Below are positions 4,078 to 47,127 of a stretch of 64,000 bases of DNA, one piece after another; position 1 is the first letter of the stretch; each line of letters opens with the position of its first letter. Below the pieces are notes generated by a model. It was not told the DNA's origin. It searched no databases and saw only the letters and a list, made by a program, of their open reading frames with translations. A program made the position numbers and the translations under genes. The stretch covers positions 5,642,001 to 5,706,000 of the forward strand of contig CM035360.1 of the NCBI GenBank assembly GCA_020137815.1, read 5' to 3'. The stretch comes from Hormiphora californensis (Eukaryota > Animalia > Ctenophora).

Positions 4078-7032
4078 ATGTCAACGAAACAATTGGAAAA
4101 GCAGTACTTCAACCTCAAGTTTGCTGCAAAGCAGCTCGAACGAAATGCTAAAAAGTGCCAAAAAGAAGAGAAAGAGGAGAAGCTGAAGTTAAAGAGGGCA
4201 ATCGAAAAAGGAAACACAGAGGGAGCGAGGATCCACGCTGAGAATGCCATCAGACAGAAGAGTCAGTATGCTAATTACCTGAGGATGGCATCTCGTGTTG
4301 ATGGAGTATGTTCACGTGTCCAGGCTGCCATCGCAATGAAACAGGTGATGTAATGTGGGTGCATGTGTGGTACTAGGTGGTGAGTGATGTGTGTGGGGGA
4401 CATGTGGTACCACTGCACTACTTCATAGTGAACACGTTTGTGGTGGGGAGTTGAAACATGGGGAGGTAAATCAGGGGGCAGGTGGGAATATGTGGAGTAA
4501 GCGGGTCTCAACTCTCATCCATTACTAAACAAGTGAGCAGCTGTAGTAGTAGTAAGTGGGCACTGGGCGTGTAGGAAAATTTGAATTTCAGATTGTCTCA
4601 TGAACGATGGGGGGAATATATGCAGTTGAAACAAGTTGTTGGGGCGATGGGGAGACATGTCGAGTCGTGTTAAATCAATCCTGAGAAATGGATTATTTTT
4701 AGTTTGGGGAGGGGAAAGGTGATTTAGGCGGGCGGAAAAACAGGTTCGAGCAAGGCAATGCCGGACGATTAGATTGGCTTGGTGTACCTGGAGGGGGGGG
4801 GGAAATCATATGATTTCTTTAGGCTGCAGCAGTCTGCAATATTATTTTTCTCATCAAATCATGTTGCCCTGCTCGTAGCTCGAGTTGTGTTTATTATGAA
4901 TTGCATCATCAATATTGCCTAGCTAGACTGTGTTTCGTGCGCCCGCGAAACAAATGTAAAGGAGGGTTAGAACATAACAACATCAATATTATTATCAGGG
5001 CGTGTTAAAATTTTGTCATCCAACGCGACCGTCAAAATCGTGCGTGAGATTGTTACTTTTAGAATGGGGAGAGAAATTTTAACGGCCACTGGTGTGTGCG
5101 GGTTTATAATCAAAATTTTAATTTTGATTTTAACTTGTGTTGGCTGGTGTGTGCACGGCGTGCCTGGTGAAACTTTAACACGACCTAGCATGCAACGGGA
5201 AACCACCACTTGTACGTGGTAGCTGAGGGTCTACAGAATGGCGCTACGGTGCGGGAAAAAAAAGTCCATGCCCTAAAATCTTTTTTTTTACTTTTATTTG
5301 ATTTGGGTCAAAATTGGCTATATTAAACGTGGTCCCGAAAAATCCATAATGACTTAGCACACGAAATATGTCACCCCCACCTATTTTTGCACGTAGAATC
5401 GATTGCCGTTGAAGTCGAATCTCTAAAATGACTGTAAAATGGTCAAAAGTTGATTTTTTACCATTTTTTGGAGGTTTTTGGCCCCTAAACCATTGAAAAC
5501 GTTGAGATAGGAATTTGAAACTAGTGCCAATCGTTAAAATGGTCATTTTTCTACCAAGAACCAAGTTTTCGTGTATATCCGATTTATGGTTAGATTTGGG
5601 CAAATTGTTGAAATCTGCCATCTAGGAGAACCGTAACTTGATTTTTTCCTTTTTTATGTTTTGGCATTTTTGACAAACTTCTGATTGAAATGGCCAGTCG
5701 GGACCATGCTTAAGTTGTTTATGGGACAATTTTCGACTAAAATCCAAGATTTCATACCAATCCAATAACAGATCGTTGATTTATAGAAAATTTAAGTAGG
5801 CAAAACGGTCAAAATAACAACTTTTCTTGCTTATTTTGACCGTTTTGCCTACTTACATTTTCTATAAATCAACGATCTGTTATTGGATTGGTATGAAATG
5901 TTGGATTTTAGTCGAAAATTGTCCCATAAACAACTTAAGCATGGTCCCGACTGGCCATTTCAATCCGAAGTTTGTCAAAAATGCCAAAACATAAAAAAGG
6001 AAAAAATCAAGTTACGGTTCTCCTAGATGGCAGATTTCAACAATTTGCCCAAATCTAACCATAAATCGGATATACACGAAAACTTGGTTCTTGGTAGAAA
6101 AATGACCATTTTAACGATTGGCACTAGTTTCAAATTCCTATCTCAACGTTTTCAATGGTTTAGGGGCCAAAAACCTCCAAAAATGGTAAAAAATCAACTT
6201 TTGACCATTTTACAGTCATTTTAGAGATTCGACTTCAACGGCAATCGATTCTACGTGCAAAAATAGGTGGGGGTGACATATTTCGTGTGCTAAGTCATTA
6301 TGGATTTTTCGGGACCACGTTTAATATAGCCAATTTTGACCCAAATCAAATAAAAGTAAAAAAAAAGATTTTAGGGCATGGACTTTTTTTTCCCGCACCG
6401 TAGCGCCATTCTGTAGACCCTCAGCTACCACGTACAAGTGGTGGTTTCCCGTTGCATGCTAGGTCGTGTTAAAGTTTCACCAGGCACGCCGTGTGTGGCG
6501 ACTCTAAGTAATTAGTAATATTAGAATATCCTGTATTATATAAGTACTATCTATGGAGCTTAGGTTGTATCAATATCCACTATCTTCTACTGACTAACAT
6601 TCACTGATAGCAACCAATACATTCACCAATACTAACCAATAGTCAATACTAATTCCAACCCCAACCACATCTCTGTATCTCCTGCAGGTGACTGGTAACA
6701 TGGCCAGCGTGGTAAAAGGTCTCGACGCCGCTATGAAGAGCATGAACCTGGAGAAGATGCAACAGTTAATGGATAAATTCGAGAAACAGCAAGAGGACAT
6801 GGATGTACAATCCCAAGCAATGGACCAATCAATGTCCAACACTGTCACACTGTCCGTCCCTGAGGACTCAGTGTCTGCGCTCATGCAGGAAGTTGCTGAC
6901 GAGCATGGTTTGGAGGTTGGTGTTGAACTAGGAGGACACTCCATACCTAGCTCATCTGTGGGTACTACATCCCACGCTAATGCAGAGCAGGATGAGCTGT
7001 CACAGCGGCTAGCCAGGCTCAGGCAACAGTAG
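4078..7032 (+). CDS. CHMP1: ESCRT-III subunit CHMP1 (Did2/Snf7 family), 2 exons: 4078-4344, 6688-7032
   Basis: FNLKFAAKQLERNAKKCQKEEKEEK...ARIHAENAIRQK and C-terminal DELSQRLARLR; phase-0 GT-AG intron joins the exons in frame. Confidence 0.95.
5154..6493. mobile_element. Non-autonomous foldback DNA transposon, Chapaev/CMC-like, copy 1 (in CHMP1 intron)
   Basis: ~660-bp near-perfect inverted arms, termini CACGGCGTG...CACGCCGTG, 4-bp TSD TGTG; second copy at 39393-40734. Confidence 0.9.
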
Positions 7033-7392
7033 GGGAACAACTGCACTGCAGAATCGTGTACATACTACTCAGCAACTTTTGTGATTTTAGAGACAACAAG
7101 GAATTTCTTAATTAATAGGGTCGAAGGGCACGCGGAAATATACAAACTCTTAGATATTTCTTGATTTTCAGAGTTGTATTGTGTTTTGTAGACTGAAAAA
7201 AATAACAATAGAAAGTGACATAAAATGATAAAATCAAAAACAATAGATATGTCTTGTAATACTTGTTTCAGCTTATAAGTGACTTGTTTAACTTTTATCT
7301 AAATGATCGGGTGTGTTTATGAACGTGTCCGGACTCTAATTGAGTTAACTAACTAACTAAATCTCCCAAGGTATTCCATGCTAATAGGTAGA

Positions 7393-10300
7393 ATGTTGTT
7401 CAAGTGTCAACGTGAGCCGTTTCTACAGGTATTCTCTTCCACCGTAACGGCATGTAAAGAGGTGAGATATAGGAGAATGAGTGTCATTTTTATCGTCTCA
7501 TCCTAGTCTTTCACCGTTTGCGTAATTCCTTCCTCTAATCTTCTTCCTGCTCTTGATTCCTGTGCAGATCTCATCTGACCCATTATGTGTTTCCAGGTTA
7601 AGATCGGAAAGAAGAAGAGATACGAGGTAGAGTTAGATGATACTATTCTGTTTCCTGAGGGTGGCGGTCAGCCATCAGACTTTGGTACGCTGCAACTTCC
7701 CACTTCTGATGCAAAGTAAGGAACGCTCTGTAGACAGCAAGGCTTGAAAATGAAGATAAACTATGTCATTCCAAGATCAAAAAGGTTTCTTGTCAAAATC
7801 TAAATTAAGCTCCTCCCTTTAAGTTTCCACGTCCAAGGAAACATCCTGTTGTTTTGTAGGGTGTTATCAGAGATCTGAGTTGTTGTCATAATTTTGATGT
7901 TTTGGGACGTCGGCTGAAAGCTTGCTCTTGCCTATGAACACTGTAAAGATGCGACGCGCGCGGAGTGCTCAGTAATATGAAAGTGTATCATTTCAACACT
8001 GTAATTTTCGCGCGCATTTTGACTGACAGCCGGATTGGATGTAAAAAGTTTATCCAAAAACAACAACAACATGATTGGCGATTATCAGGCAATTAACAAA
8101 TTCAAATGAAATTTTTCCTATCAGGATAGGAGTGCTAGATGTACAAAGAAGGGGTGGAGCAGCTGTCCATACAACAGATAAACCAGTTCCTGTGGGTCAA
8201 GTTGTTAATGCTAGCGTGGACTGGGAACGGAGATTTGATCACATGCAACAACATACCGGTAGTAATGTTACCACTGATATAAGTTCAATGTAGCAGCGAG
8301 TACCACTGGTCAAAACCCAGATTCTTTTGTAAAATTGGAGAAGTCTTGTTTTCGATTACATTTACCAAAACATCCTCACCGTTCCTTCAGGTCAGCATCT
8401 GTTAAGTGCAATTGCAGAGCAGGAACCGTATAAACTTAATACTGTTTCCTGGAATCTAGGTAGGCTCACATACCGTTTTATACCTCTATCTCCCCCTTTT
8501 ACCGTTCGTTCAGTCTCTCTCTCTGTCCCTCTCTCTCTCTCTCTGTCCCTCTCTCTCTCTCTCCACTCTCTCTCTCTCTCTCTCTCCCACAGGAGCGAGT
8601 GTCTGTCTTGTCGAACTGGATGCTCCTTCCATCTCTCACGAGATATGTGATCAACTGGAATCACGTTGTAACAGGTAAGCAACATCATCAGTTCATTTTC
8701 ACTGTCCGCTCTCTTTCTCTTGCTGTGTGCCATGCCTCGCTCCGATGTTGACAAATCAGTGGTAGGCTGGTCCAAGAAGATCACAATTCATAGACATGCG
8801 ATCCTGGGAGAGGGCAGCAAGGGGACCATCGTATTTGAAGGGCGAGTGGAGGGTACTATCCCCGTGGCAGTCAAAAGATCCCAGTTCACCTATCTAACAG
8901 ATGGGACTGCTCTCCTTGATGAGTTGAAAGTACTCCAGAAATTAAACCACCCAAATGTAGTCCGTTATCGAATGTATGATCGGGACCATGACTTTACTTA
9001 CATAGCCCTGGACCTCTGTAAGGAACCCCTCACGTCGTGGATTGAAACCATCCCTGGCCCTAGTACAGCTGACAGAGTGTTCGCTCTGAGAGGTATCGCT
9101 CTGGGTTTGGAGTACCTTCACCTTAACAACATTATACACGGTGATCTCAAACCGGCTAATGTCCTGATTCAAGAGGATAAAAGAGATGATTTCAGAGTGG
9201 TGATCTCAGATTTTGGGCTCAGTGTGGAGTTACCCCAGGATAAGAGTAGTGTGTTGGTGAAGGCTGAGGGTTCTAGTGGTTGGTTACCTAAGGAGGTTTT
9301 AGAGGCTAAGAAATCGTCAGACACCAAAGTCCAACTAAAGAGAGAGGTAGATGTGTTCTCATATGGCTGCATGATACAATTCGTCATGGCAACTAAACGA
9401 AAAACAGACTTCACCCTTCATCCGTTTGGTGCGGCTGTCTCTCGAGACAGGAACATTGTATTCCGGAAACGAGTTGCAACGATTGTACAGAGAAGGAACT
9501 ACAGCAAGTTTACCATGATTGAACTGTTGGCTGATATCCTGGTGGAGCTGTGTGTTTGTGATGTACCAGGAAGGCGTCCATCTGCCATCGGGATCCTGTC
9601 CAACCCATTATTTTGGAACTCTACCAAGTGCCTCCGGTTTCTAATTGATGTCTTTAACAACAACAAAATCTTGATCCATGATCGTAATAATACCGATCAT
9701 AGGGAGAGTGATGTGGTTAATGCGGCGGAGGATGCCTGGCAAACCTATCTCAGAGGGGCTACTTTAGCCAAACTGATCCCTGAGGCATGGGACTACGCTG
9801 TGAAATGTAGAAAAGATGCCAAGGCAAGTAAACCAAGAGGAATATCTCTGTTTAATACCACGCTCAGGATCATACGAAATACCCAACAACATGCCAATGA
9901 GAGGGTGAGCGATTACCGGCCCCTCCGACAAGTCTTGGTTAAAAACCCAAAAGATCCAAAAGATAGGCCCTCTGATGATACCATTGCCGACTATTTCCTA
10001 ACCAGACTACCCTGTCTAATCCCTGTTGTGTACTACAAGCTCTACACTTATTGTGTACAGAGACGCCTCCTTAACGACTACTACTCGAGTTGTAAAGAGG
10101 CGGGGAGGAGTAGGATGGTGTCCATGCCTCACTCTAGTTACAGGCTGGACTGGGAAGAGAAGGCCATGACTGTGGTGCTGGACAATGTTTATGGGATAAA
10201 GGATTTGGGGAGGCGTAAATGTAAATCTGGGTAAACTGTGGATTGCAGAATTTAGAATTTAGAATCTAGATTAATCTTTAGTACTACAGTAGTATAATGT

Positions 10301-11694
10301 AGATTGCAAATTCTTGGACTATATGAGAGGGTAGAGGAACAGTATTTTTGATATTTTAATATACCATTGGGTTTCTTGACTGTTTATAGTTTTCAGAATT
10401 TTTCAGAATTTTTGCAGCTGAGTGTATTTGATGCCCAACTAACTAACTTATCCAATACTTCCATGACTCCATCTCATCAAATTTTCCTTTCAGTTTGATT
10501 CGCCAAGCGCTACCAGTGGTTACCAAAGTTTTTGAGGGTAAGGATGATCCGGGTCTTTCGTCGGCACACACCCGGGGTCTACCTGATGATCATACAGGTA
10601 ATGAATATAAGAGCTTCCTTGATCTCGTACCTTCAAAATTTGTTTGTACTCTTTTCTTATTCACTCGGCTCACTGAAGAATCTTACCCATATCTCATACC
10701 CTTCTCTCTCTCTCCCCCCTCCTCTCCTAGTCAATTACTCGTAGTCGCTCCTCTCCTAGTCAATTACCCTTCTCCCCTAGGTCCAGTGAGAGTTGTGCAG
10801 ATAGGGGAGGTAGATGAGAACATGTGCTGTGGAACACACCTCACCTCACTTGCACAGGTAGGGAATCGGGGTTTTAACAATTTTATAACAGGGCCTGAGC
10901 CACGCAATTCTTATTTAAATCGTTTTATCAGGATCGACTAGATTTCACAGTCTGCTAACCAATATCCGTTTCTTTCCCGCAGGTTCAAGCTATTAAATTG
11001 TTACACACAGAATCAAAGCGTGGTAACACTTTGCTTTACTTTATTTGCGGAGAGCGAGTCTTCAAATTCCTTAATTCGACTTTGGAGATTAATTCAAAAC
11101 TAAACGTTCTTCTCTCCTCACCTCCCCAACAATTCGCCCCCATGGTAAGTATGGCTGTCGGTGGGATTCACCAAGTGCATTCAACACAACTTTATTATCG
11201 ATATATTCGGACTTCGGAGGTATAGATAGTGTGTAGATTGTGAAAAGGGGTATACAGAGAGTTTAACCAATGACAAAAGTGTTTCTATTCAAAGTCTCTG
11301 TTAACAGGTTGAAAAGCTGGCCAAAGATAGCAAGACCCACCGGAAGCAGTGCGAGAAACTATCTGATGAGTTAGCCACACTGCACGCCTCAACCCTCCTC
11401 TCATCCCCTGAGCCTGTCCTTGTAATCCATCGCCCCACCTCTGATGCCCAATACAGTCAGACACTCCAACACAAACTGGGAGAGGAGAAGAGGCCTCTCC
11501 TTCTCACCATGGGTGAACAAGGGGCTGCTCAGGTGGTATTTAAAGGTCCTGAGGAGCTGGTTGATAGGCTTGGTAAGGAGTTGATGAAGAGACTGGATGG
11601 GAAGGGAGGTGGGAAGAATGGACGGTTTCAGGGGAAGTTTAGTGATGTGGGGAAGGTAGCAGGTGCTGTTGAGTGGCTGAAAAGTGAGATCTGA
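7393..11694 (+). CDS. AARSD1: Alanyl-tRNA editing protein (AlaX-type). Exons 7393-7461, 7597-7715, 8125-8258, 8391-8459, 8593-8674, 10494-10597, 10781-10857, 10983-11144, 11308-11694
   Basis: DTILFPEGGGQPSD, RRFDHMQQHTGQHL, CCGTH zinc motif, C-terminal GKGGGKNGRFQGK; all junctions GT-AG and in frame. Confidence 0.92.
8732..10234 (+). CDS. Intronless IRE1/RNase L-like Ser/Thr kinase plus KEN ribonuclease domain, no luminal or TM region; nested in AARSD1 intron 8675-10493
   Basis: ILGEGSKGTIVFEG, VAVKR, HPNVVRY, HGDLKPANVLI, ISDFG, GSSGW, HPFG, RRPSA...NPLFW, KEN-like LRIIRNTQQH and YFLTRLP. Confidence 0.88.
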   Translation: MPRSDVDKSVVGWSKKITIHRHAILGEGSKGTIVFEGRVEGTIPVAVKRSQFTYLTDGTALLDELKVLQKLNHPNVVRYRMYDRDHDFTYIALDLCKEPLTSWIETIPGPSTADRVFALRGIALGLEYLHLNNIIHGDLKPANVLIQEDKRDDFRVVISDFGLSVELPQDKSSVLVKAEGSSGWLPKEVLEAKKSSDTKVQLKREVDVFSYGCMIQFVMATKRKTDFTLHPFGAAVSRDRNIVFRKRVATIVQRRNYSKFTMIELLADILVELCVCDVPGRRPSAIGILSNPLFWNSTKCLRFLIDVFNNNKILIHDRNNTDHRESDVVNAAEDAWQTYLRGATLAKLIPEAWDYAVKCRKDAKASKPRGISLFNTTLRIIRNTQQHANERVSDYRPLRQVLVKNPKDPKDRPSDDTIADYFLTRLPCLIPVVYYKLYTYCVQRRLLNDYYSSCKEAGRSRMVSMPHSSYRLDWEEKAMTVVLDNVYGIKDLGRRKCKSG

Positions 11695-11905
11695 TTTATT
11701 TATTTACTTTTTGTAAGTTGTTTAGTCTGTTTTAGGGCTTTGAGAACTATTTTATTGCTTAGGCTAAAGTATTACTAGCTTTGGGTCTCGACTACAAATA
11801 TTTCCCAGACATTTTGACAAGAGATATACCTCCACATAGCTATGATGACCTAGGAATAGGGTGTGGTCTGACCCAGACACGATTATCTAAGAACTACGGT
11901 TGGAC

Positions 11906-22520
<10,615 letters not shown>

Positions 22521-22940: not shown

Positions 22941-25900
22941 ATGTCTCGGTTGGTTTTGAGGTACCTACATCAGCATTCTAGACGACTTCAGTCAGCCCCA
23001 ATGATCTGTAGACGACTGCTTACCGACGAAGCGGATAAAGGTTAAAAAAGCACCACCCTTAGCTTCTCTTAGTCAGATTCTCATTGAAAACATCCGAAAG
23101 AAGTTGACAATTGTCTCTGAATCATGCAGCTAATTTTAGCAGAGAGAGAGGGGCCACAAGTACAAAATATAGTTTCTATTAGAAAAAAGATCAACGTGAT
23201 AGATACTGATACTCTCCCTCAGCAGGAACATGTGACCTGTCCATCTCCAATCGAACCGCTATCGTTACTCTGAGGAATGAGGGCAGGATGAACTGTATGA
23301 CAGAGCAAATGGCTGTCAAGTTTCAGGTACGATTATTGCACATTTTGGCACCGCACAGTTGTACTTGCTAATTACATATACATTACTAGGGCTGGGAGTT
23401 TTATCCCAGTTTTAGGTGCTTACAATTACAACTTTTAATTTACCTGGCTTTGGGAACTGTCGGGTGCCGTTACTAATTTCCATCTATCACAACACCAGGA
23501 GACGATAAGAACACTGCAGGAGAGGAACCCACAGGTGCGATGTCTTGTTATAACTGGACACGGGGGAAGTTTTGCAGCGGGTGCTGATCTGGCGTGGCTG
23601 GAGGAGAGAGGGAGGACACCGGAGGAGGAGAATTTCAAAATCATGCAGGTTAGCAATATTACCAAAAGTGAAGGAGCTGAACCACTCGTTGCTATGGTAA
23701 CACCTATTAGCGACTAGCACCCTCCAAACAAGTTGCAAATATTAGTGATCCTTTTCAAAAGAAAGGATAATTAGGATAATATCTTAGTTACATACTAAGT
23801 TAATTTTAATTTTGGCGCATGAAACTACTCCCTGGTACATCATTATAACTTACAAGAAGGCGATATTTCGCAGGCACAGTTCATGAAATAACCAGGTAGT
23901 GTAGCCGGCCAGTCATGCCACTTCCCTTCTTCTGGTGGCCATGTGTTATGATCATTAACCATGACAACGTAGTTCTCTATGTTGCCATTGTTATTTGGTT
24001 GGGTGGGCGCCCAGTTAAAATATGTAGCAGGTTCACCATTAAACCAAGCCCATGGCCCACTTTTATCGTTAGAGGGTGTTGTGTCATACAGACCGAGCCA
24101 GGTTGGCCCGTCTGACTTGAGGTTTATCAACCAAAGGAGTTCCTTGTTCTGGGACAGGTTCAGAATCTTGGGTAGATTACCGTTATGTGAGGTACACAGG
24201 GCTTGACAGTTGGTTATTGATTGAAACTCAAGACCGTCCGCGTCCGGAGAGATCAGGATTACCAATTTCTCTAGGGGCAATAATATATGGAAATTATCTA
24301 GTGCCATTATGTGTTAATAACACTAGATAAATCCCAATTAAAGATTAGAAGCAAATTAACGCTATAGCAGTCAATTGACGGCGTCACTGCAAAGGTCACT
24401 AAAAGTTATCTCACTTAGGACATCCGATCTTCCAAACAAAGATGCGTTTACGCATCCTAGCGTCTCATTGCCTTCTTTGCACTCTTCCATTTTCCACTGC
24501 CCATCGCACAGGAACACCATCTTATCACCCGGTGAGATTTGTGATTCCTGGCGGGCATTTTCACCGGACAGATATCCGATTATGTTCTCAGTCACATTAC
24601 AGCCACCTGCAAAAATAGGATAGAACTCTATATATTCAACTATTATTCAATGATATTAATTATTACGGCTCGATCGCTGGGTTTTTAAGGAATGTACTTT
24701 TACCTGCTGCAATTGAGAGTAGGGGGAAAAGGAGTAGAACAAACATAACCATGCGTACATTCAAAGGGTATAATGCTAAAAGGTAGACTGCTAAAAAGTA
24801 GTAGCTGTGTGAATGCTTGGCGCTTGCCCACAATACCATTATAGATGAAAACGGGAGAGGGAGATAGTGAAGGATAGAGGGATAGCGACACTGACAGATA
24901 GAGAGAGGGATAGAGAGGAAGATAGTGACAGAGAGAGAGAGAGACAGCGACACTGACAGATAGAGAGAGGGATAGAGCGGGAGATAGTGACAGAGAGAGA
25001 GACAGCGACACTGCCAGATAGAGAGAGGGATAGAGCGGGAGATAGTGACAGAGAGAGACAGCGACACTGACAGATAGAGCGGGAGATAGTGACAGAGAGA
25101 GACAGCGACACTGAGAGAAAGAGAGACAGCGACACTGACAGAGATTGATTGATTGATTGAAATAAATAGGTACGTGGAACACAAAGTATGGATGCACACA
25201 CAGAAAACACAGCGTAAAAACACAGTGAAAACATGTAAAATAGCAGTTCTAGCACACACATAAATCAGTTCCAACTGTCCCTTGCGAGACACTGTCAATG
25301 TCATAGTTCTTTGAAAACATTCAGATTGGTGGTTCGTAACCAGTGCCACAAGCTTGGGGGACAGGTGATGACTGGTTGTAGAGGAAGTCCACATGGGGAT
25401 GTTGCTCCGTGATAGGAAGACTTTGTGCCATATAGCGCATATGGGAAAGAAGATAGGTTAAGGGGAGAATTTAAGGAAGGGAGAGGCGAGGAGAGAGGGG
25501 GAAACAACTGCTCAATATAGATAATTTGGATAGGTTGGATTATAGGAGCCAGGTTGAATTATAGGAGCCAGGTTGGATTATAGGGTAGAGGGAATAGGGG
25601 GCTGTGGGGATCAATTTCTCAACAGAGAAGTGTTTAAACATGTCCATATAATATCAGGACCAGAGTTCTGAAGATGGGAGATCAACTTAAAGGCAGCTGA
25701 TTTGAAAGACTGAGGCGAGAAAAAACAAGATGCAGAGTTAAAATATGTTTTGTCTTTCAAAGCTGTGTTCCAAAACCGAGGCCCAGAAAACATGAAATTG
25801 TTGTCAAGGTATATGCGCCTACCGAGAGGAACCAGAGAGAGACACTCATTTCTAGAGGAAAACTTGATAATAGAGGTTGGTCTATGAGATGTATTGGTAC

Positions 25901-27719
25901 TGTAGTAATAAAACATTTCAGATAGTACAGAGAGTGTATAGAGCGAGTACACTGTCAGTAGTGACTCAGCGGCAAAAGTTGGTTTGGTGTGAGGCTTTGC
26001 ATACTTATCAAGCTTGGGTATGTTATAGAGAATACGAACAGCATCCTTCTGGAGCTTGAATAAAGGCAGAAGCTTGTTATTGGACGACCCCCAGACACAC
26101 AATGCATATCTAATATTAGACTGTATAAGCGACTCGAAGACAGAGCGCCTCATGGATTTAGGGAGACAATTCCTGAGTCGCCTCAGACTCCCTAAAGTAC
26201 AATAAGTCTTATTAATAACTTGCGTGATGTGGGGGTCCCAGGAAAGCTTACTATCAACTATAACACCTAGAAACTTGACCTGGTCGACACATAAGATATC
26301 ATCACCATTAAACTTGGGGAAGAAGATCTGATTAGAGTTGTCTAGCAAAGTACGGAAATGAATGAAATTAGTTTTACCAACATTAAGGTGTAGATAATTA
26401 GAACAGACATATTCCTGAAGGTTGGTCAAAATAAGATCAATCATACGTTGGACATCAGCAATGCTATCACCAGATATGAAGATACTTGTATCATCTGCAA
26501 AGAGAACAAACTTGATGCCTTTCGAACACCTCCCAGAACACACGGTTCTACAAGAACAAATAATATTGGGTAAATCATTCAGGTAAAGAATAAACAGTAT
26601 GGGACCTAAAATTGATCCTTGAGGGACACCGTAGATAATAGGGAGAGTAGAAGAAGAGAAATCTGATAAGCGCACGAGAGAGACAGCGACACTGAGAGAG
26701 TGCTGTTGTTGGAGGATCTCAAGCTCATATATGTAGGTATAGGCGGCTCAAGACTCTTTTTGGTGTACCAAAGTGTATGAAGAAGAAGAGTGTATGACTT
26801 ATTAGTGTACAAACCATTTTCCCAAACGACCTCCGTCCCCCACCCACTTAACTTCACAGTCCTTCCTTTTTAGGAGTACTACGGTTACTTCACAGTCCTT
26901 CCTTTTTAGGAGTACTACGGTTACTTCACAGTCCTTCCATTTTAGGAGTACTACGGTTACTTCACAGTCCTTCCTTTTTAGGAGTACTACGGTTACTTCA
27001 CAGTCCTTCCATTTTAGGAGTACTACGGTTACTTCACAGTCCTTCCATTTTAGGAGTACTACGGTTACTTCACAGTCCTTCCATTTTAGGAGTACTACGG
27101 TTACTTCACACCCCTGCTGGAGTTGCCTCTCCCGACGATAGCAGCTATTAATGGTCCAGCGGTGGGTGCTGGATTTTGTGTGGCCATGTTTTGTGACCTC
27201 CGGTTAACGGGGCAAACGGTTAAACTGGGTGCCAACTTCCTCCGTGTAGGTCAGTGGTTTAAATCAGGAACCGACCGAATCAGGAAATACTGGTCCCTGA
27301 TTGGCTGATAACCAGTCACGTGACCTAAATAACGTGTTCTGATTGGTTGTTTACTTGTTTCGGTCGGTTCCTGGTTTAAATGTTTTATCTGTGGTGAATC
27401 CCTTTGTTCTCACCAAATCAGTTGACCCAACATTCCCACGTCAGTCGTCAATTACCCATCTGACCTGTCCCAGGTATATATCCTAGGTATTAATTCCCCC
27501 CCTCTCCTAACTAGGTATATCCCCGGGTATGGGTGGAAGCTACACAATCCCCACAAAACTCTCCGACCAAGCCTCCAAGGAGATTATCCTGACAGGCAGG
27601 TTATTTAGTGGAGTGGAGGCTGAAAGGATGGGAGTGGTCATGAGGGCAGTCCCCGATAAAACTCAGGTATAGAGTCGCTGGTCGCTGAGCTCAGGGTAGG
27701 AAATTTGTCAGGATTTTAC

Positions 27720-27759
<40 letters not shown>

Positions 27760-30700
27760 TTCCGCGCTTATATACCGCCCATACCCGACAGAGACATGCC
27801 AAAATATTGACGATGTTCCGCCGAATCATCAGAGCGGTATATCCTCGACTAATTATATGACACACTCGAACAACTCTGGTTGAAAAACAATATATAGACG
27901 ACTAAATAAACTTGACTTATAAAACTGAGGGAATAACTGGTCCCATAATCCTGTAGATATAAATTAAAACACACTATACTCACACCTGCTCGAAAAAAGG
28001 ATACTAGGTAATGAATTAATAACATGGCTAGAGAGAGGATGACACTGATTGCCCGCAGGCCCCACAACCACAACAAACATTACAACTCAGCCATGGGTTC
28101 CCCATCACCCACTCCAAATGCACCAACGAAGAGATGTGTTTTCAGCCGGGTTTTGAAAGTATCCACACTGGGGATTGACCTGAGCTCAAGAGGAAGCTCA
28201 TTCCAGACAGAAGGCAGGAATACTGATAACCTCCTACGTCTCAACTTAGAGTTGGCATTGATACTGGTCATCTTTGGATGTTTTAACCTATAGGGATCCG
28301 GAACATTAGTCATCCTCGTTGTCCTAGAGGTTCCCCAAGTCTCATCACGTGGCACCAAATCCTGGAGATAACACGGGGCTGTTCCATTGACTATTTTATA
28401 GGCAATCAAACATGCTTTGAAGTCCAACCTATAGGAGATCGGCAAAATATGACACTGCCTGAAATACTCCATGTAGTTGTCCTGGTGTCCGTGGAGGTTA
28501 AATACAAAACGAACACAGGCATTGAGAAGCTTCTGGAGCCCACTGAGAACTCGACCAGGAAGTCCACAATACAGAATGTTACTGTAGTCTATCCTCGATA
28601 AAATCAACTGTTTGACCAACATTATCTTTGTTGGGATATCAAAACACCTGTGCAGTTGCCAAAGGTTTCGTAACATCAGCCCACACTGTTTCCTCACATT
28701 GTTAACCTGTCGTTCAAGGCCAAGATTATGATCCAAGAGAATTCCCAGGGTTTTACCATCTGTTCCACTACATTCACTGGGGGAGATTTCCGTTCCTCCA
28801 AAGTTGATAACTGGATCAAAAGAGACTTTGCTTAGAGAACTGCGCTTTCCAAGCAGGATGAATTCCGTTTTGGCCTCATTACAATTCAACCACTGCCCTA
28901 CCATCCACCTCTTCACTTTCGCCAGACACTCCTCAATATCCACCTTTGCCTCAACCCAGCCAGCAGCATCCGTAGGAACCAGACTCACGTAGAGCTGGGA
29001 ATCATCTGCATATAACTTTATCCGGAGTCCATATGGCTCCACAATATCTTGTACAGCCTCGATGTAGAGTAGGAACAAAATAGGACCAAGGAGGGACCCT
29101 TGAGGGACTCCACAAAGTAAGGCAAGGGTTTCCGAAAGGCAATCACCGACCGAAACTCTAAAAGATCTGGAACTCAAATAGCTTTTAAACCATCGGAGAG
29201 GTTCACCATCCACCCCAAACCGTTTCTGCAACACCTCCAACAACTTTCCATGGTCAACCGTATCAAAAGCAGCGCTCATATCTAGACAGATAAGAGCTAC
29301 TACGTTTCCTTTATCCATTTCCCCTAGAATGTCATCGAACATGCTTGCCAATAGCGTTTCGCAACTGTGACCAACACGATAGCCAGACTGATGTTTGCCC
29401 AAAAGAGAGTTGCGATCCAGGTAGTCATTGAGTTGCGTGAGAACTACCTTCTCAAGAAGCTTAGACAGAAATGGGATGTTCGAAACAGGACGATAGTTGC
29501 TGAGAGCTTCACGATCTCCATACATATTCTTGATGGTAGGAAAGACAAGTGCCTCCTGGAGAGATTCTGCGACCGAAGACTGATGTAGAGACTGATTGAC
29601 TATTGATGTTAATACAGGAGCCAGATCACTTATACACTCCTTTACCACCCAAGTGGGCAACGGGTCCAGGTCACAGTGCTTGCTGGACATCGATTTCACT
29701 AATGAAACAAGTTCCTCCTCAGATATCTCTTTGAATTCATTCCATATTGTATGACAGGACTTTCCAGATTCCACAAAATCGCCAGCCTGCTGCTGCTCCT
29801 CATTGACTTGGGTCCGAATTTTGGTCACCTTTGAACTAAAGAACTTTGAAAAATCATCAGCCAGGTTCTTGTTGTTGGTAGTCTCAGGAAGAATAGCTTC
29901 CGCTTTTCCCAGGAGTTTCTGTAACTTTCTTTGTAGCTTCTTCGGGTCCCCTTTTGCTGCATCCAAGTCCTCTTTAACAAAAGCTGCTCTCTTTTCCTTG
30001 TCCATGTTTCCATAGAGCTTCTTCAAATCATTGAATCTCCGTTTCGCTTCCTCAGTTCCATGCTTCCTCCAGTATCGTTCCGCACTCCTCCTCTTACGTA
30101 GTATTCCTCTTAGTTCCTCATCTCTCCACGGTTTAAACTTTTTCCCTGTCCTCACCCGTTTCCTCGGAACTCGCCTTTCCACTACACTTTCCAACCAACG
30201 ATAGAAGTTTACAATACTCTCCTCTGGATCCCGGCCTGGTTCAAATTCCGCTTTCTGGAGGTCCTCTCTGAATCCTTCCTTGTCCATTGACTTGTAGTCC
30301 ATGTATTCTCGAAACATTGATTTCCGCATACAAGAGTTTGACAGGTCCTGTCTCACTTCAAGCCCAAACTGTACCAGGAAGTGGTCCGAAGTAGTACCAT
30401 TAGGACAAATTGTTACGTCGCCTAGATTGGTTTCCTTTGTAGTTATCACCAGGTCTAAGGTTCCACCAAGTTGGTGAGTAGGCAACAGTGGTACTCTTTG
30501 CTGAAGGTCAAATGAATCTAGAAGCTCCAATAGTTTCCTCGAGTAGAAGTTGTTCTTGTCCTGCACCTGAAAGTTCAGATCCCCTGCTATAATTGGAGTA
30601 CCTTGCTTCATAACAAGTTCTGAAAGATAGTCTCCGAACTCAGATAGGAATGTAGCTTCTGTGAGTCTTGACTTAGTTGTGTATGGTGGACGATAAACAT

Positions 30701-31036
30701 TACAGAGTCTCTTTGGTTGATCTCTGTCACTGATGAGAACCTCCTGCACTTGAAAAGACTTAACAAGAGAGGAAAGTAGTAACTCTTGAAATTTCACCTT
30801 CTTTTCCCCGTGTGCAGGTATTACCGGAAGCCCTAGCTCTTGCGGACCAAATAACCAGCACAACATCACCGCTAGCAATGCGGGAATCCCTCCATCTTAC
30901 ACGGATATCACAGATCCCCGAGATCAAGGAGCAGTTGGTTAAAGAGGCAGCCGCCCAGGCGAGATGTTTTGCAGGACCTGACTACCGCATTGCGCTGGAA
31001 TCTGTGAAAACCAAAACACCACCCGTGTTTGAGTGA
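22941..31036 (+). CDS. Enoyl-CoA hydratase/crotonase-family protein, probably mitochondrial. Exons 22941-23040, 23223-23326, 23499-23648, 27090-27249, 27515-27666, 30818-31036
   Basis: Arg-rich N-terminal presequence; VITGHGGSFAAGADL; PTIAAINGPAVGAG...CDLR; GISPGMGGS; EIILTGR...AERMGVV. Confidence 0.9.
23843..24752 (-). CDS. Secreted C-type lectin domain protein nested antisense in crotonase intron. Exons 24752-24704, 24606-24415, 24270-23843
   Basis: Signal peptide MVMFVLLLFPLLSIAAG; TWLGL, YFNWAPTQPNN, GKWHD, CE motifs. Confidence 0.85.
24855..25142. repeat. GA-rich minisatellite (GAGACAGCGACACTGACAGATAGAG...)
   Basis: Several diverged copies; one more unit at ~26679-26699 beyond the LINE. 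Confidence 0.85.
25143..26672 (-). mobile_element. 5'-truncated non-LTR retrotransposon (CR1/L2-group RT) with (CAAT)n tail
   Basis: ORF 26675-25611: GVPQGSILGPILF, LFADDT, KFLGVIVDSKLSW; 3' UTR ends in CAAT repeats; interrupts a minisatellite. Confidence 0.88.
26852..27110 (+). repeat. 36-bp tandem array containing 7 copies of a crotonase 3' splice acceptor plus exon start
   Basis: Unit ACTTCACAGTCCTTCC(T/A)TTTTAG|GAGTACTACGGTT; last copy continues into the exon. Confidence 0.95.
27265..27373 (-). mobile_element. hAT-type MITE
   Basis: TIRs and 8-bp TSD GTTTAAAT. Confidence 0.92.
27721..30814 (-). mobile_element. 5'-truncated L2/CR1-group LINE (partial APE endonuclease plus uninterrupted RT ORF) with (TTA)n tail, in crotonase last intron
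   Basis: ORF ending 28080: NVYRPP, IAGDLN, PTH..GGTLDLV, SDH, NYRPVS, LDMSAAFDTVDH, GVPQGS, LYADDSQ; TAA repeats at 27721-27760. Confidence 0.95.
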
Positions 31037-41734: not shown

Positions 41735-44066
41735 TCACTGCATCCAGCACAGCCCACAAGATTTAAGGCAATTCCTGGACATCCACTTTGTGTAAGTTTT
41801 GTGATAACAGAATCCCTCTCCTTGCCAGTAACTACAGTACAACTGGTAATCGAAACAAGACACATTGCTCTTTTCTTCCTCTTCCTCAGGTTCTGTCTCA
41901 CTACCACCTCCGCTGGATGCATCAGTTGTGTCTGGCCTCCACTGAGTTACAGAGACAAAGCTCCCAGCGGGTCCCCCAACATTATATTTGTTCAGGGTGT
42001 CGATATCAAACTTGTGCCCAAAACTCTCCAGCACCTCCCCGTTAAGAGCTGCACTGTAACTATCAGCTCCTACAGTTACCTTCAAAGAGAGACTATCACC
42101 TTCAATTGTGGGGTAGTCTCCAATCACCTTGGTCCCCCAAGTTCCACTTGTCTTACTGTTGATCCGGTAGACCCCTTTAGCCTCCTGGAACTCGATATGA
42201 TATGCAATATCGCTGCTTGAGAAGACGTTAAAGAACCACTTCCCAGTAGATGACGTCACAGAGGTAACGTTAACTTCAAACATATCTCCCGAGGAGACCC
42301 CATCCAGTTTGATCTTCTTCTTCTTAGTGATATCTGTGGTCTGGTATACAGAGTTGTAGGTGACCTGGTCATCCTCACTAGCATCGTCATCTTGGGAGCT
42401 GTCTGATCCGTCCAGGGCAAGGATGGGGTAGGATGCCCAGTAACTGTACCCGTCAGAGGAGCACCCTCGCTGTAGCTTAAAGTACCCATCAATACCCCAG
42501 GATGTGCCCCAGCTGTTCTTAATTAGCAGAGAATCAGCATCGTACCCAACCAGGGTTACCAAGTGGTTACAGTTCTCCCCCAGACAACTGTCAATAGTTC
42601 CACTTTCGTAGTAGTAGACGGTGTCATCTACGTAGACACAGATAGCTACTGGTCCGTAGCTGCCCAAGTTGGTTAACATAGAACTCTCTGAGTCGGATTC
42701 TCTCATGACCTGAAAAAGAACTTGGGTAAAACATTTGGACACATTTTATATTGATTGAGGCAGCCTGTTATCATGTTCAAAAGATAAGACTTGAAGGAAG
42801 GACCGCTATACTAAAACAAGAATAATTTCAGTTTGTTCACCTAACGGGTAGGTATCAAGTCTAAATACCTTGTATCCAGTTAGTTGTGCCCCCTCCAACC
42901 CATTAGTTCCATCCCTGGAACAGTCATCTGCTGTCTTGGCTCCCTCATAGGGGGTATCCTCTAGCAGTGCTACAAAGTTATTCTCCTTGATATCAGTCCA
43001 GACGGTCGGCCACCACCCACCACTACAACCATACGCGCTGTTACAGTCGATCACCTATAGAGGAGTGTGATGGGGTTAGCTTTGTTCTTACTCTCCATGG
43101 TGCAGAGAGAGCGAGAGATGTTCGAACAAGGCAAGGTTAGCTATGGAAATGTGAGCAAGCAATTTAAGTCCAGTAAAGGTAGCATTTATTGAAAACAAGT
43201 TCTGTCTGCTAACCTGTTGCTCACTGAAGTTTTTAAGGTTCCCCGTTGCTATGAAATAAGATGATTCAACGGTGGCGATGGCACCGAATGCCCAACATGA
43301 ACCACACGTTCCTGTAAAAGAGTGATTTCGAGTTAGAGAATAACGTGTACTATAATAATACAAGCATATTACATAGAAGTGGTTAACAAGTTAGATAAGG
43401 GTGTGCTAACTATTAGTTAGCACACCCACTGGTTAGGCGAAGTCACGGGCGGAGTTTAGTGTTAGAGGAAGTCAGTGTTTTCTTGTACCTACCTTGATTT
43501 TTAACAGGTGTAACAGCCCCGTGATCCCTCCAATCCAGACTCTCCTCATCACTCCGTTTCCCTCTGATCCTCCCAGCAGGACCCATCTTCCCAGCAGGAC
43601 CCATCCTGTTCCTGGGTAGTGGTGGCCTCATCCCACCCTCATCTCCACCCCTTACCTGGGGCTGGGAGGTCCACTTGGCCTTAGTCTCTGTCATGTGAGT
43701 CATGTTAACACCAAGATATCCCTTCTTCTCATCATCTGTCATCATAGCGAAGAAGTTCTCTCCCATTTTGAATTTATCCTCTCCCCGCTCCGCACGGAGT
43801 GCTTGGATCCTTGTTCGGGAGGCTTGGAACAACTTGAACCGCTCTGTTTTAGTTCCGTCAGTTAGAAGATCCTCCATTCGGTGGCCCTGTCTTCGTGGTC
43901 CTCGAAGTTGATCCCTCTCACTGGCCCCCTGGGCTAGGGACCTGTCCCATAAAGCATTGAACTCCGTCCGGGCCTGGAGGGCTTCTGTCCTGGGATGACG
44001 CCTTGCATCTAGTGCCTTGATGGCGCAGAGGACGCCTAGGGCAAACAACACTAATCTTGTCGACAT
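41735..44066 (-). CDS. Papain-family (C1A) cysteine protease with C-terminal galectin-like domain and ShKT domain, 4 exons
   Basis: Signal peptide, prodomain, DWRDHGAVTPVKNQG|TCGSCWAF, CNHLVTLVGY, IKNSWGTSWG; DIAYHIEF...INS..SGTWG; C-terminal 6-Cys ShKT. Confidence 0.92.
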
Positions 44067-44803
44067 GGTGAAATGATCAGTATAGTTAGAGCCAAGTGCT
44101 AAGTGCAGTAGCAGATGTGGGTGTCTATTATTAGCTATCTAAACAATCAGAATATAGCTTCTAGTTCATCCATCGCTTGTAGGAGGGGGATGGACGTGTT
44201 AAAATAACTGCATGGCCTCATGGGTTGCACAATGCAGAGTACAGAGTATCCTGGAACCGGATTCAGTTATCCAAGTTATCCTATACCTGTTTTCCTAATA
44301 AACCCCTTTTCAGGTTGAAATGTTGTAGCAAATAGATGAGATGATGGTATCCCCTACTACAAGCAATGTAAGTAGAGAATCACACACGTGCCAAGGGCTT
44401 GTTTTGTTCAAACCGGAGGTGCGGAGAGAGAGGGTCGAACAATGCGACTAGGGGCTGTATATACGAACTCTTGAACATGTGTGGGACAATATGAGATTCA
44501 TCTTTGAGTTATCACGTGATCTATTGGGAATCCTTGATCATGATTTTTTACGAAGACGTTTATTTTGAATTTATTGTACTTGACTGTATTTTCTTCCCGT
44601 AATTTGGTAACCGATATTTTTCATTTTGTTTCGGACACGGTTGGTAATGGGATCCAGGGACCAACACTCTTCGATCGCCACATTATAACACACCATAGTT
44701 TACAGGAAACCGAAATTTTGAAAGATATACATAATCATAATTTACAGCGCTTTTCAGACCATGCTCTGTACTCGAATAATGTCTCCAAGTTCTCAATGTC
44801 TCT

Positions 44804-46974
<2,171 letters not shown>

Positions 46975-47027
46975 GTTGGATCGAATTAATGGACGCTGGT
47001 GGTGGCTCCCAGATATATAGTAACGCT

Positions 47028-47127
<100 letters not shown>

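Follow-up and report, generated by a model that had tools for sequence, protein, structure and literature searches.

An intron-nested kinase-RNase gene of Hormiphora californensis, apparently one of an undescribed ctenophore family derived from IRE1

In this study, we analysed a 64,000-nucleotide stretch of the genome of the ctenophore Hormiphora californensis (the window; assembly GCA_020137815.1, contig CM035360.1, positions 5,642,001 to 5,706,000 of the forward strand), in which an intronless open reading frame (ORF) lies within an intron of another gene. We found that its 500-residue product, P0001, joins a protein kinase to a KEN ribonuclease (RNase) domain and is apparently a member of an undescribed ctenophore expansion of sensorless kinase-RNases derived from IRE1. 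A preliminary description of this DNA had pointed to a catalytic loop without the usual Arg-Asp (RD) pair and to the same-strand nesting; the core of the finding is the family and its conserved nuclease site rather than either of these. In window positions, the ORF and its parts are:

8732..10234, + strand: intronless ORF of P0001, an IRE1-derived kinase-KEN protein of 500 residues (ORF call, Pfam, model and fold search)
8783..9616, + strand: kinase domain (about residues 18-295), with G-loop, K48, E64, HGD138LKPAN, DFG at 160-162 and HPFG
9620..10126, + strand: KEN/HEPN RNase domain (about residues 297-465), with R382, N383 and H387; basic, with 29 Lys and Arg to 19 Asp and Glu
10127..10231, + strand: C-terminal tail with one predicted helix (residues 469-487), outside the IRE1-aligned part (model and fold search)

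Domain architecture and relatives of P0001

P0001 matches the Pfam kinase family (Pkinase, E 3.7e-36), and its top 16 sequence matches in the PDB are all IRE1. An AlphaFold2 model built on a 20-row alignment (mean pLDDT 81.4, pTM 0.85) aligned through its residues 7-464 with residues 562-963 of human IRE1 (Z 34.5, root-mean-square deviation 2.5, 388 residues); in the same fold search, kinase-only structures aligned with about 260 residues of the model. Since the alignment spans 388 residues and model residue 7 corresponds to IRE1 562, the KEN domain is real and the protein starts where the IRE1 kinase starts. No hydrophobic N-terminus was found in P0001, and its eight Pfam matches include no ankyrin family. 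The preliminary description had read P0001 as a soluble, sensorless kinase-KEN protein that lacks a signal peptide, transmembrane segment, luminal domain and ankyrin repeats and differs in architecture from both IRE1 and RNase L; the fold and domain tests support this reading. HGDLKP and RNTQQH are both present, and RNTQQH satisfies the HEPN pattern Rx4-6H with a polar residue after the Arg, on a helical HEPN fold. A viral fold search returned kinase-level matches only, the best at 17% identity and a TM-score of 0.48.

A word search found three full-length relatives of P0001, at 94%, 40% and 35% identity. An exhaustive search then added further relatives (best 150 matches), from which 122 kinase-KEN units were cut out. 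In a FastTree phylogeny of these units, 19 group together with a support of 98. IQ-TREE was run on 48 rows, namely 18 of those 19 (the identical unit P0270 was omitted) and 30 hand-picked across the other groups, and the 18 family units form one side of a branch supported at 100/99. This tree is unrooted, has long branches and includes no identified RNase L or ctenophore IRE1. Within the family, P0001 sits in a 15-row clade (98/91) with proteins of Mnemiopsis and Bolinopsis. The named members are Mnemiopsis KAL5248846.1, Bolinopsis XP_063690065.1 ('IRE2-like', 518 residues) and a protein of Pleurobrachia bachei (819 residues, with BRCT). A profile search with the 20-row alignment yielded no further family member, its best new match being a turtle IRE2, and a metagenome scan with generic kinase motifs (1/64 parts) gave 80 loci at 23-38% identity, none of which was used.

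At most 54 residues precede the kinase in 17 of the 19 members measured, including the named Bolinopsis and Mnemiopsis proteins. Of the two longer members, one has BRCT and the other, P0131, has ankyrins, with additional repeats in P0270 of the same cluster. P0131/P0270 lies inside the clade with the ankyrin-kinase-KEN layout of RNase L, keeps R-N-H and has a Tyr at -12; its cluster comprises four ENA proteins in two forms that differ in the number of ankyrin repeats. The BRCT of P0191 (Pleurobrachia bachei) is N-terminal, from either a true fusion or a merged gene model. Several members are single products of 492-545 residues on long ENA contigs, which hints at a family without introns.

Kinase-KEN proteins without a luminal region were also found outside the clade, in Exaiptasia (KXJ10098.1) and Anopheles cruzii (XP_052869117.1). 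Judged by domain content, the sensorless design thus recurs beyond ctenophores, in a sea anemone and a mosquito; these proteins share the IRE1-type kinase-KEN module with P0001 and differ from it in having ankyrins or tandem units. Grouping of the Exaiptasia protein with the ankyrin member of the clade was rejected marginally (approximately unbiased test, p-AU 0.042), and the ankyrin gain in the clade looks, marginally, independent of the Exaiptasia one. Unusual kinase-KEN layouts outside the clade include ankyrins with two units (P0146, Exaiptasia), two units in tandem (P0136, Anopheles cruzii), KEN-kinase-KEN (P0148, Pristionchus mayeri) and leucine-rich repeats with two kinases and a KEN (P0147).

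P0001 resembles IRE1 (ERN1) in its kinase subfamily (HPFG, HPxFW), in a KEN fold over the whole module, in R-N-x3-H and in its kinase catalytic residues. Unlike IRE1, it has no signal peptide, luminal sensor, membrane helix or linker, reads HGD for HRD, lacks the Lys after DFG and the alphaC-beta4 dimer Asp, has no Tyr at the canonical position and carries a longer basic helix-loop element; its gene is intronless and its family multi-copy. With RNase L it shares a soluble kinase-KEN build from a kinase-plus-RNase ancestor (PMC10400998), but P0001 has none of the N-terminal ankyrin repeats that bind 2-5A in RNase L, and its catalytic residues are intact, unlike those of the RNase L pseudokinase (PMC4536996). 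RNase L is confined to jawed vertebrates, where it is thought to have arisen from a plain kinase-RNase that gained ankyrins (PMC10400998). With the family profile, IRE1 scores 1e-77 to 1e-86; RNase L is not among its 42 matches at 1e-30 or better, nor among the matches listed in the sequence and fold searches with P0001, a relationship being still possible in both cases. Arabidopsis IRE1C is likewise an IRE1 paralogue that has no luminal sensor and has diverged further than IRE1A and IRE1B; it retains a membrane helix and is a small Brassicaceae duplication redundant with IRE1A/B, not a large divergent clade. The solo-KEN expansions of Oikopleura and monocots are, like this family, lineage-specific, with an intact HEPN motif and a proposed defensive role (PMC3710099), but they lack the kinase, which all full-length members of the ctenophore family retain.

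The RNase effector of a third type that had been envisaged thus stands as a distinct architecture, though not a unique one, as it belongs to a ctenophore-wide family. We found no published description of such a family, in a search that covered subscription literature thinly. A survey that sorted RNase homologues into ten clades, with independent ankyrin gains, does not mention ctenophores in its main text, although its figures and supplement may include them (PMC10400998). Likewise, a term search of the main text of a paper on Mnemiopsis immune genes (PMC11797021) found no mention of IRE1 or OAS.

Nuclease site, kinase and selection

We compared residues between 21 family rows (the 18 tree members, P0143 and the partial P0130 and P0139) and 58 canonical IRE1 units, the latter chosen by their RNK motif, so that their R, N and H counts are circular and their other counts are not. 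The family keeps the active-site Arg in 20/21 rows, the Asn in 21/21 and the His in 20/21. In P0001 these are R382, N383 and H387, in agreement with the reading of RNTQQH in the preliminary description. All three are in the top six of 137 KEN columns by conservation, in a domain with a mean identity of 24% across the 21 members, as against 44% within IRE1. Their retention is unlikely to be a selection effect, because members were found mainly through the kinase. The KK of RNKKHH and the SDR motif are lost in most members. A Tyr common in the family, Tyr355 in P0001, lies farther upstream than that of IRE1; MAFFT pairs the two across an insertion and HMMER does not, so that the Tyr described as missing is indeed absent from the IRE1 position and has a possible counterpart in one of the two alignments. 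In yeast Ire1, H1061N costs at least 3e5-fold in activity and Y1043F about tenfold (PMC3149027); loss of the Tyr need not, therefore, kill activity.

All seven kinase catalytic positions checked in P0001 are intact (K48, E64, H136, D138, K140, N143 and DFG). The catalytic loop reads HGD and not HRD, as previously noted. Across the 21 members, the residue before the catalytic Asp is Arg in 11, Gly in six, Asn in two, Cys in one and Lys in one, with two changes of RD status on the tree; HGD is found in P0001 and P0002, and the nearest full-length paralogues, P0003 and P0122, are both RD. The Lys after DFG, present in 53/58 IRE1 units, occurs in 2/21 family rows and is missing from P0001. Several members that keep R-N-H have decayed kinase motifs (HRN, DLD, DFE, DFQ). 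Non-RD immune kinases are receptor-linked, of the IRAK/Pelle type and non-RD across the family. We rejected a place for P0001 among them, since its kinase is of the IRE1 type and its family is mixed for RD. With RD kept in 11/21 members and in both nearest full-length paralogues, the loop does not hold up as the sign of immune function that it had been taken for.

P0001 and its closest relative, P0002, which is 94% identical to it, differ by 29 substitutions at the protein level. Among columns with at least eight rows, changes fall in 1 of 121 conserved and 26 of 345 variable columns (Fisher p 0.0025). The mean BLOSUM62 score of the changes is +0.86, compared with -0.45 +/- 0.32 in 3000 neutral simulations, none of which scored as high and 76% of which gained a stop. 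At the level of the two proteins, this comparison shows that P0001 is under purifying selection and not evolving neutrally, and a dead retrocopy is thereby excluded.

Proposed role of the kinase-RNase

We give about an even chance to the reading that P0001 acts in defence or stress as a soluble RNase that stays latent until a signal drives it to dimerise. The cytosolic half of IRE1 would have been copied early in ctenophores, probably by retroposition, and the copy would have spread into many paralogues, one of which, P0001, landed in the host intron. The gene would be expressed from a 5' end near 8690, through its own start or through trans-splicing, and only the latter would compete with tRNA editing by the host product. 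The kinase would bind nucleotide and serve as a switch that presumably no longer depends on activation-loop phosphorylation, as P0001 has lost both basic anchors. As the N-lobe dimer Asp of IRE1 is deleted, dimers would form upon a new trigger, which might be a partner, a paralogue, RNA, or the ankyrin and BRCT modules of some members. The KEN dimer would then cut single-stranded RNA with His387, in a decay-type reaction and not in XBP1-type splicing; the predicted targets are cellular or viral RNA, upon a defence or stress signal. Retention of R-N-H argues for catalysis, and the loss of sensor, phospho-anchors and dimer Asp for uncoupling from the unfolded protein response (UPR). The defence reading draws on the expansion and domain gains: where active HEPN/KEN domains have multiplied within single lineages, a defensive role has been argued (PMC3710099), and the family fits this pattern. 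Ctenophores are reported to lack RIG-I-like receptors (PMC8476169), and the family is a candidate for RNA-level defence in these animals. It is also a living example of the plain sensorless kinase-RNase stage, multiplied into numerous paralogues, some with ankyrin or BRCT gains, in the animal lineage that branched off first. In addition, it amounts to a natural test of whether the RNase can spare particular residues of IRE1, namely the Tyr, the RD Arg and the dimer Asp.

Several observations weigh against this reading. The KEN part of P0001 alone gave no phmmer match in the PDB, and Ribonuc_2-5A (PF06479) matched P0001 with E 1e-4 and 22.9 bits, 0.4 under its cut-off of 23.3. The profile search that had been put forward as a check therefore falls short for P0001 itself, although the fold search spans the KEN domain; three relatives of P0001 exceed the cut-off, and an Atlas lead of 0.90 links P0001 to a PF06479 cluster. 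Of the 18 members looked up, three carry names, and all three are ctenophores. The short N-terminus of P0144 contains a hydrophobic stretch, and P0143 is without R and H. The Tyr at -13 from the Arg, found in 57/58 IRE1 units, occurs in 1/21 family rows and is absent from P0001. The alphaC-beta4 Asp, which we take from its motif to be human Asp620, is present in 52/58 IRE1 units and in 0/21 family rows (two rows do not reach the site); the 19 members with coverage there have all lost or replaced it, and in P0001 it is deleted. Human Asp620 makes salt bridges of the back-to-back dimer (PMC4536996), and IRE1 requires this dimer for RNase activity (PMC4536996, PMC4486022). The lost dimer contacts could mean that the RNase is rarely or never assembled. 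Moreover, the case for a defence role comes down to the pattern of expansion and fast divergence.

These losses bear on a first alternative, which we consider unlikely, namely that the protein is a kinase or an RNA-binding scaffold with a catalytically weak or silent KEN domain. The intact catalytic positions of the P0001 kinase would fit such a role, as would the loss in most members of the canonical Tyr, the KK of RNKKHH, the SDR motif and the dimer Asp, given the dependence of the IRE1 RNase on its dimer (PMC4536996, PMC4486022). However, the rank of R, N and H within the top six KEN columns is hard to explain without catalysis, and it is the kinase motifs that decay in several members that keep R-N-H.

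A second alternative is that P0001 is a sensorless UPR helper, recruited to IRE1 at the endoplasmic reticulum (ER) and adding to the decay of ER-bound mRNA, in the manner of Arabidopsis IRE1C. IRE1 is indeed the nearest protein in sequence and fold, and sensorless IRE1C acts redundantly with IRE1A/B in development (bioRxiv 10.1101/651182). We nevertheless regard this as rather improbable: the absence of the dimer Asp from every one of the 19 members covering the site makes it unlikely that the protein pairs with IRE1 by the usual face, the long branches and the number of paralogues are ill-suited to a housekeeping pathway, and IRE1C plays no part in the response to ER stress (bioRxiv 10.1101/651182).

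Improbable too is a reading in which P0001 is soluble and active as an RNase but acts on developmental or housekeeping RNA, as in germline RNA clearance or tRNA cleavage, and not in defence. Strong purifying selection, and not rapid change, between P0001 and P0002 agrees with such a role; in addition, a tRNA anticodon stem-loop is among the RNAs that yeast Ire1 can cleave (PMC3149027), and the host gene acts in tRNA editing. Yet host function is weak evidence on the role of a nested gene, because nesting is so common in ctenophores: 2357 nested genes are reported in Hormiphora, many of them parallel to their host, and a parallel nested intronic class has been described (PMC8527503). P0001, whole inside one host intron on the same strand, has this layout. 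Same-strand nesting is thus ordinary in ctenophores and adds little to the finding.

Nesting, expression and neighbouring genes

The host gene and the parts of the intron that flank the nested ORF are:

7393..8674, + strand: host exons 1-5 (7393-7461, 7597-7715, 8125-8258, 8391-8459, 8593-8674), with an HxxxH motif
8675..10493, + strand: host intron 5, which holds the nested ORF (GT-AG, phase 2, 1819 nucleotides)
8686..8698, + strand: candidate 5' end of the nested mRNA, with a weak AG acceptor (8690-8691) and tandem initiator-like hexamers (8688, 8693)
10235..10436, + strand: AT-rich presumed 3' untranslated region, without AATAAA, with one AATATA at 10358
10437..10493, + strand: repeated branch-point-like motif and acceptor of host exon 6
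10494..11694, + strand: host exons 6-9 (10494-10597, 10781-10857, 10983-11144, 11308-11694), with a CxxxH motif

The nine GT-AG exons of the host join into an open frame of 400 residues. Two of the four exons scanned match Pfam (tRNA_SAD, E 7e-8; tRNA-synt_2c, E 5e-4). These matches, together with the HxxxH and CxxxH motifs of AlaX, fit an AARSD1/AlaX-type tRNA-editing enzyme, and we assume the name AARSD1 on this basis. A search with the last host exon gave no match among 451 candidates. Intron 5 is far longer than the other seven (125-409 nucleotides) and stands between the two zinc motifs of the host; its retention leads to an immediate stop (AGG TAA), as had been predicted. The claim of an intronless 500-codon ORF just past an AARSD1 donor was also confirmed: a single uninterrupted frame of 1503 nucleotides, amid intron-rich neighbours, begins 57 nucleotides 3' of the GT at 8675. 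The GC content of the window is about 43-44%, close to that of Pleurobrachia, given as 42.8% (PMC4773876).

Animal IRE1 genes are multi-exon, and the loss of introns makes a retroposed origin of the nested gene plausible. In this respect, the retroposition proposed earlier keeps its footing in the intronless frame and gains none from an insertion scar, as no target-site duplication or poly(A) remnant flanks the ORF among the repeat families listed (20/26 direct, 25/26 inverted); an old insertion would have lost such marks. No second copy of the nested gene was found by tblastn within the window. Two LINE-type reverse transcriptase ORFs (378 and 938 residues) lie at 25614-30896 on the - strand, a possible source of retroposition.

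The ORF could instead be the last exon of a longer protein, membrane-anchored or fused to the host, or a dead retrocopy. Spliced to a phase-2 donor, the AG at 8690-8691 would keep the frame of the kinase, and its junction with host exon 2 would give an open fusion of 576 residues; the 14 codons before the ATG also read as hydrophobic (Kyte-Doolittle 1.9 over 19 residues). However, this acceptor has no pyrimidine tract, the hydrophobic reading stems from a run rich in C and T, P0001 and P0002 share their starting Met, and upstream there are only host exons and CHMP1, without the luminal domain that would have spoken against a sensorless protein. As purifying selection excludes the dead copy, we hold this alternative to be very improbable. 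A 671-residue fusion from exon 5 was discarded because it would need a 17-nucleotide intron.

In a message that begins in host exon 5, an upstream ORF in another frame, starting at 8620, would overlap the ATG; a 5' end near 8690 avoids this conflict. The CATCAG at 8686-8691, earlier proposed as a site of leader addition, is a mixed candidate for splicing: it has the right frame for phase-2 donors and is weak as an acceptor, since its pyrimidine fraction is 0.38 and those of 11 acceptors in neighbouring genes are 0.57-1.0. Two hexamers that we take to be initiator-like from the consensus, and that were noticed post hoc, overlap this AG at 8688 and 8693; such pairs occur in 0.3-0.4% of same-sized segments, and also upstream of CHMP1. 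A study in a sponge found no initiator enrichment (PMC4773876). A 17-nucleotide piece of the Hormiphora leader has no match in the window at three mismatches. The leader is found on 56% of Hormiphora long reads, trans-splicing thus being ordinary (PMC8527503). We lean slightly towards an mRNA made from its own start inside the intron, and hold leader trans-splicing combined with intronic 3' processing of the host pre-mRNA to be possible, at somewhat less than even chances. Competition with tRNA editing would follow only if both messages share one pre-mRNA; it would then be real, since intron 5 separates the two zinc motifs of the host.

At the 3' side, no AATAAA follows the ORF or either neighbouring gene, and we dropped its absence as evidence because both neighbours lack it too. 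A branch-point-like 11-mer before the acceptor of exon 6 (10437-10447) recurs before a 5' acceptor of the host (7347-7361); it was set aside as a special signal, as a third copy lies in an ordinary intron (16872-16882, - strand).

CHMP1, AARSD1 and a BTB-kelch gene stand head to tail on the + strand (4079-11905), with gaps of about 360 and 210 nucleotides, in an operon-like arrangement without AATAAA. A near-perfect palindrome of 1.34 kb in a CHMP1 intron (5154-6493; arms 98% complementary, centre of 13 nucleotides) is probably a foldback transposon. The next gene apparently hosts another nested gene: its BTB (12237-12416) and kelch (21803-22306) exons are separated by - strand exons (13399-15779) of kringle, crystallin-like and ephrin-receptor-like cysteine-rich type. 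Positions 1-2800 are homopolymer-rich and of low complexity, with a strong AT skew, and look like poor-quality assembly. Finally, two tandem papain-type protease genes with ShK-like domains, one of them also with a galectin domain, lie at 41738-47127 on the - strand.

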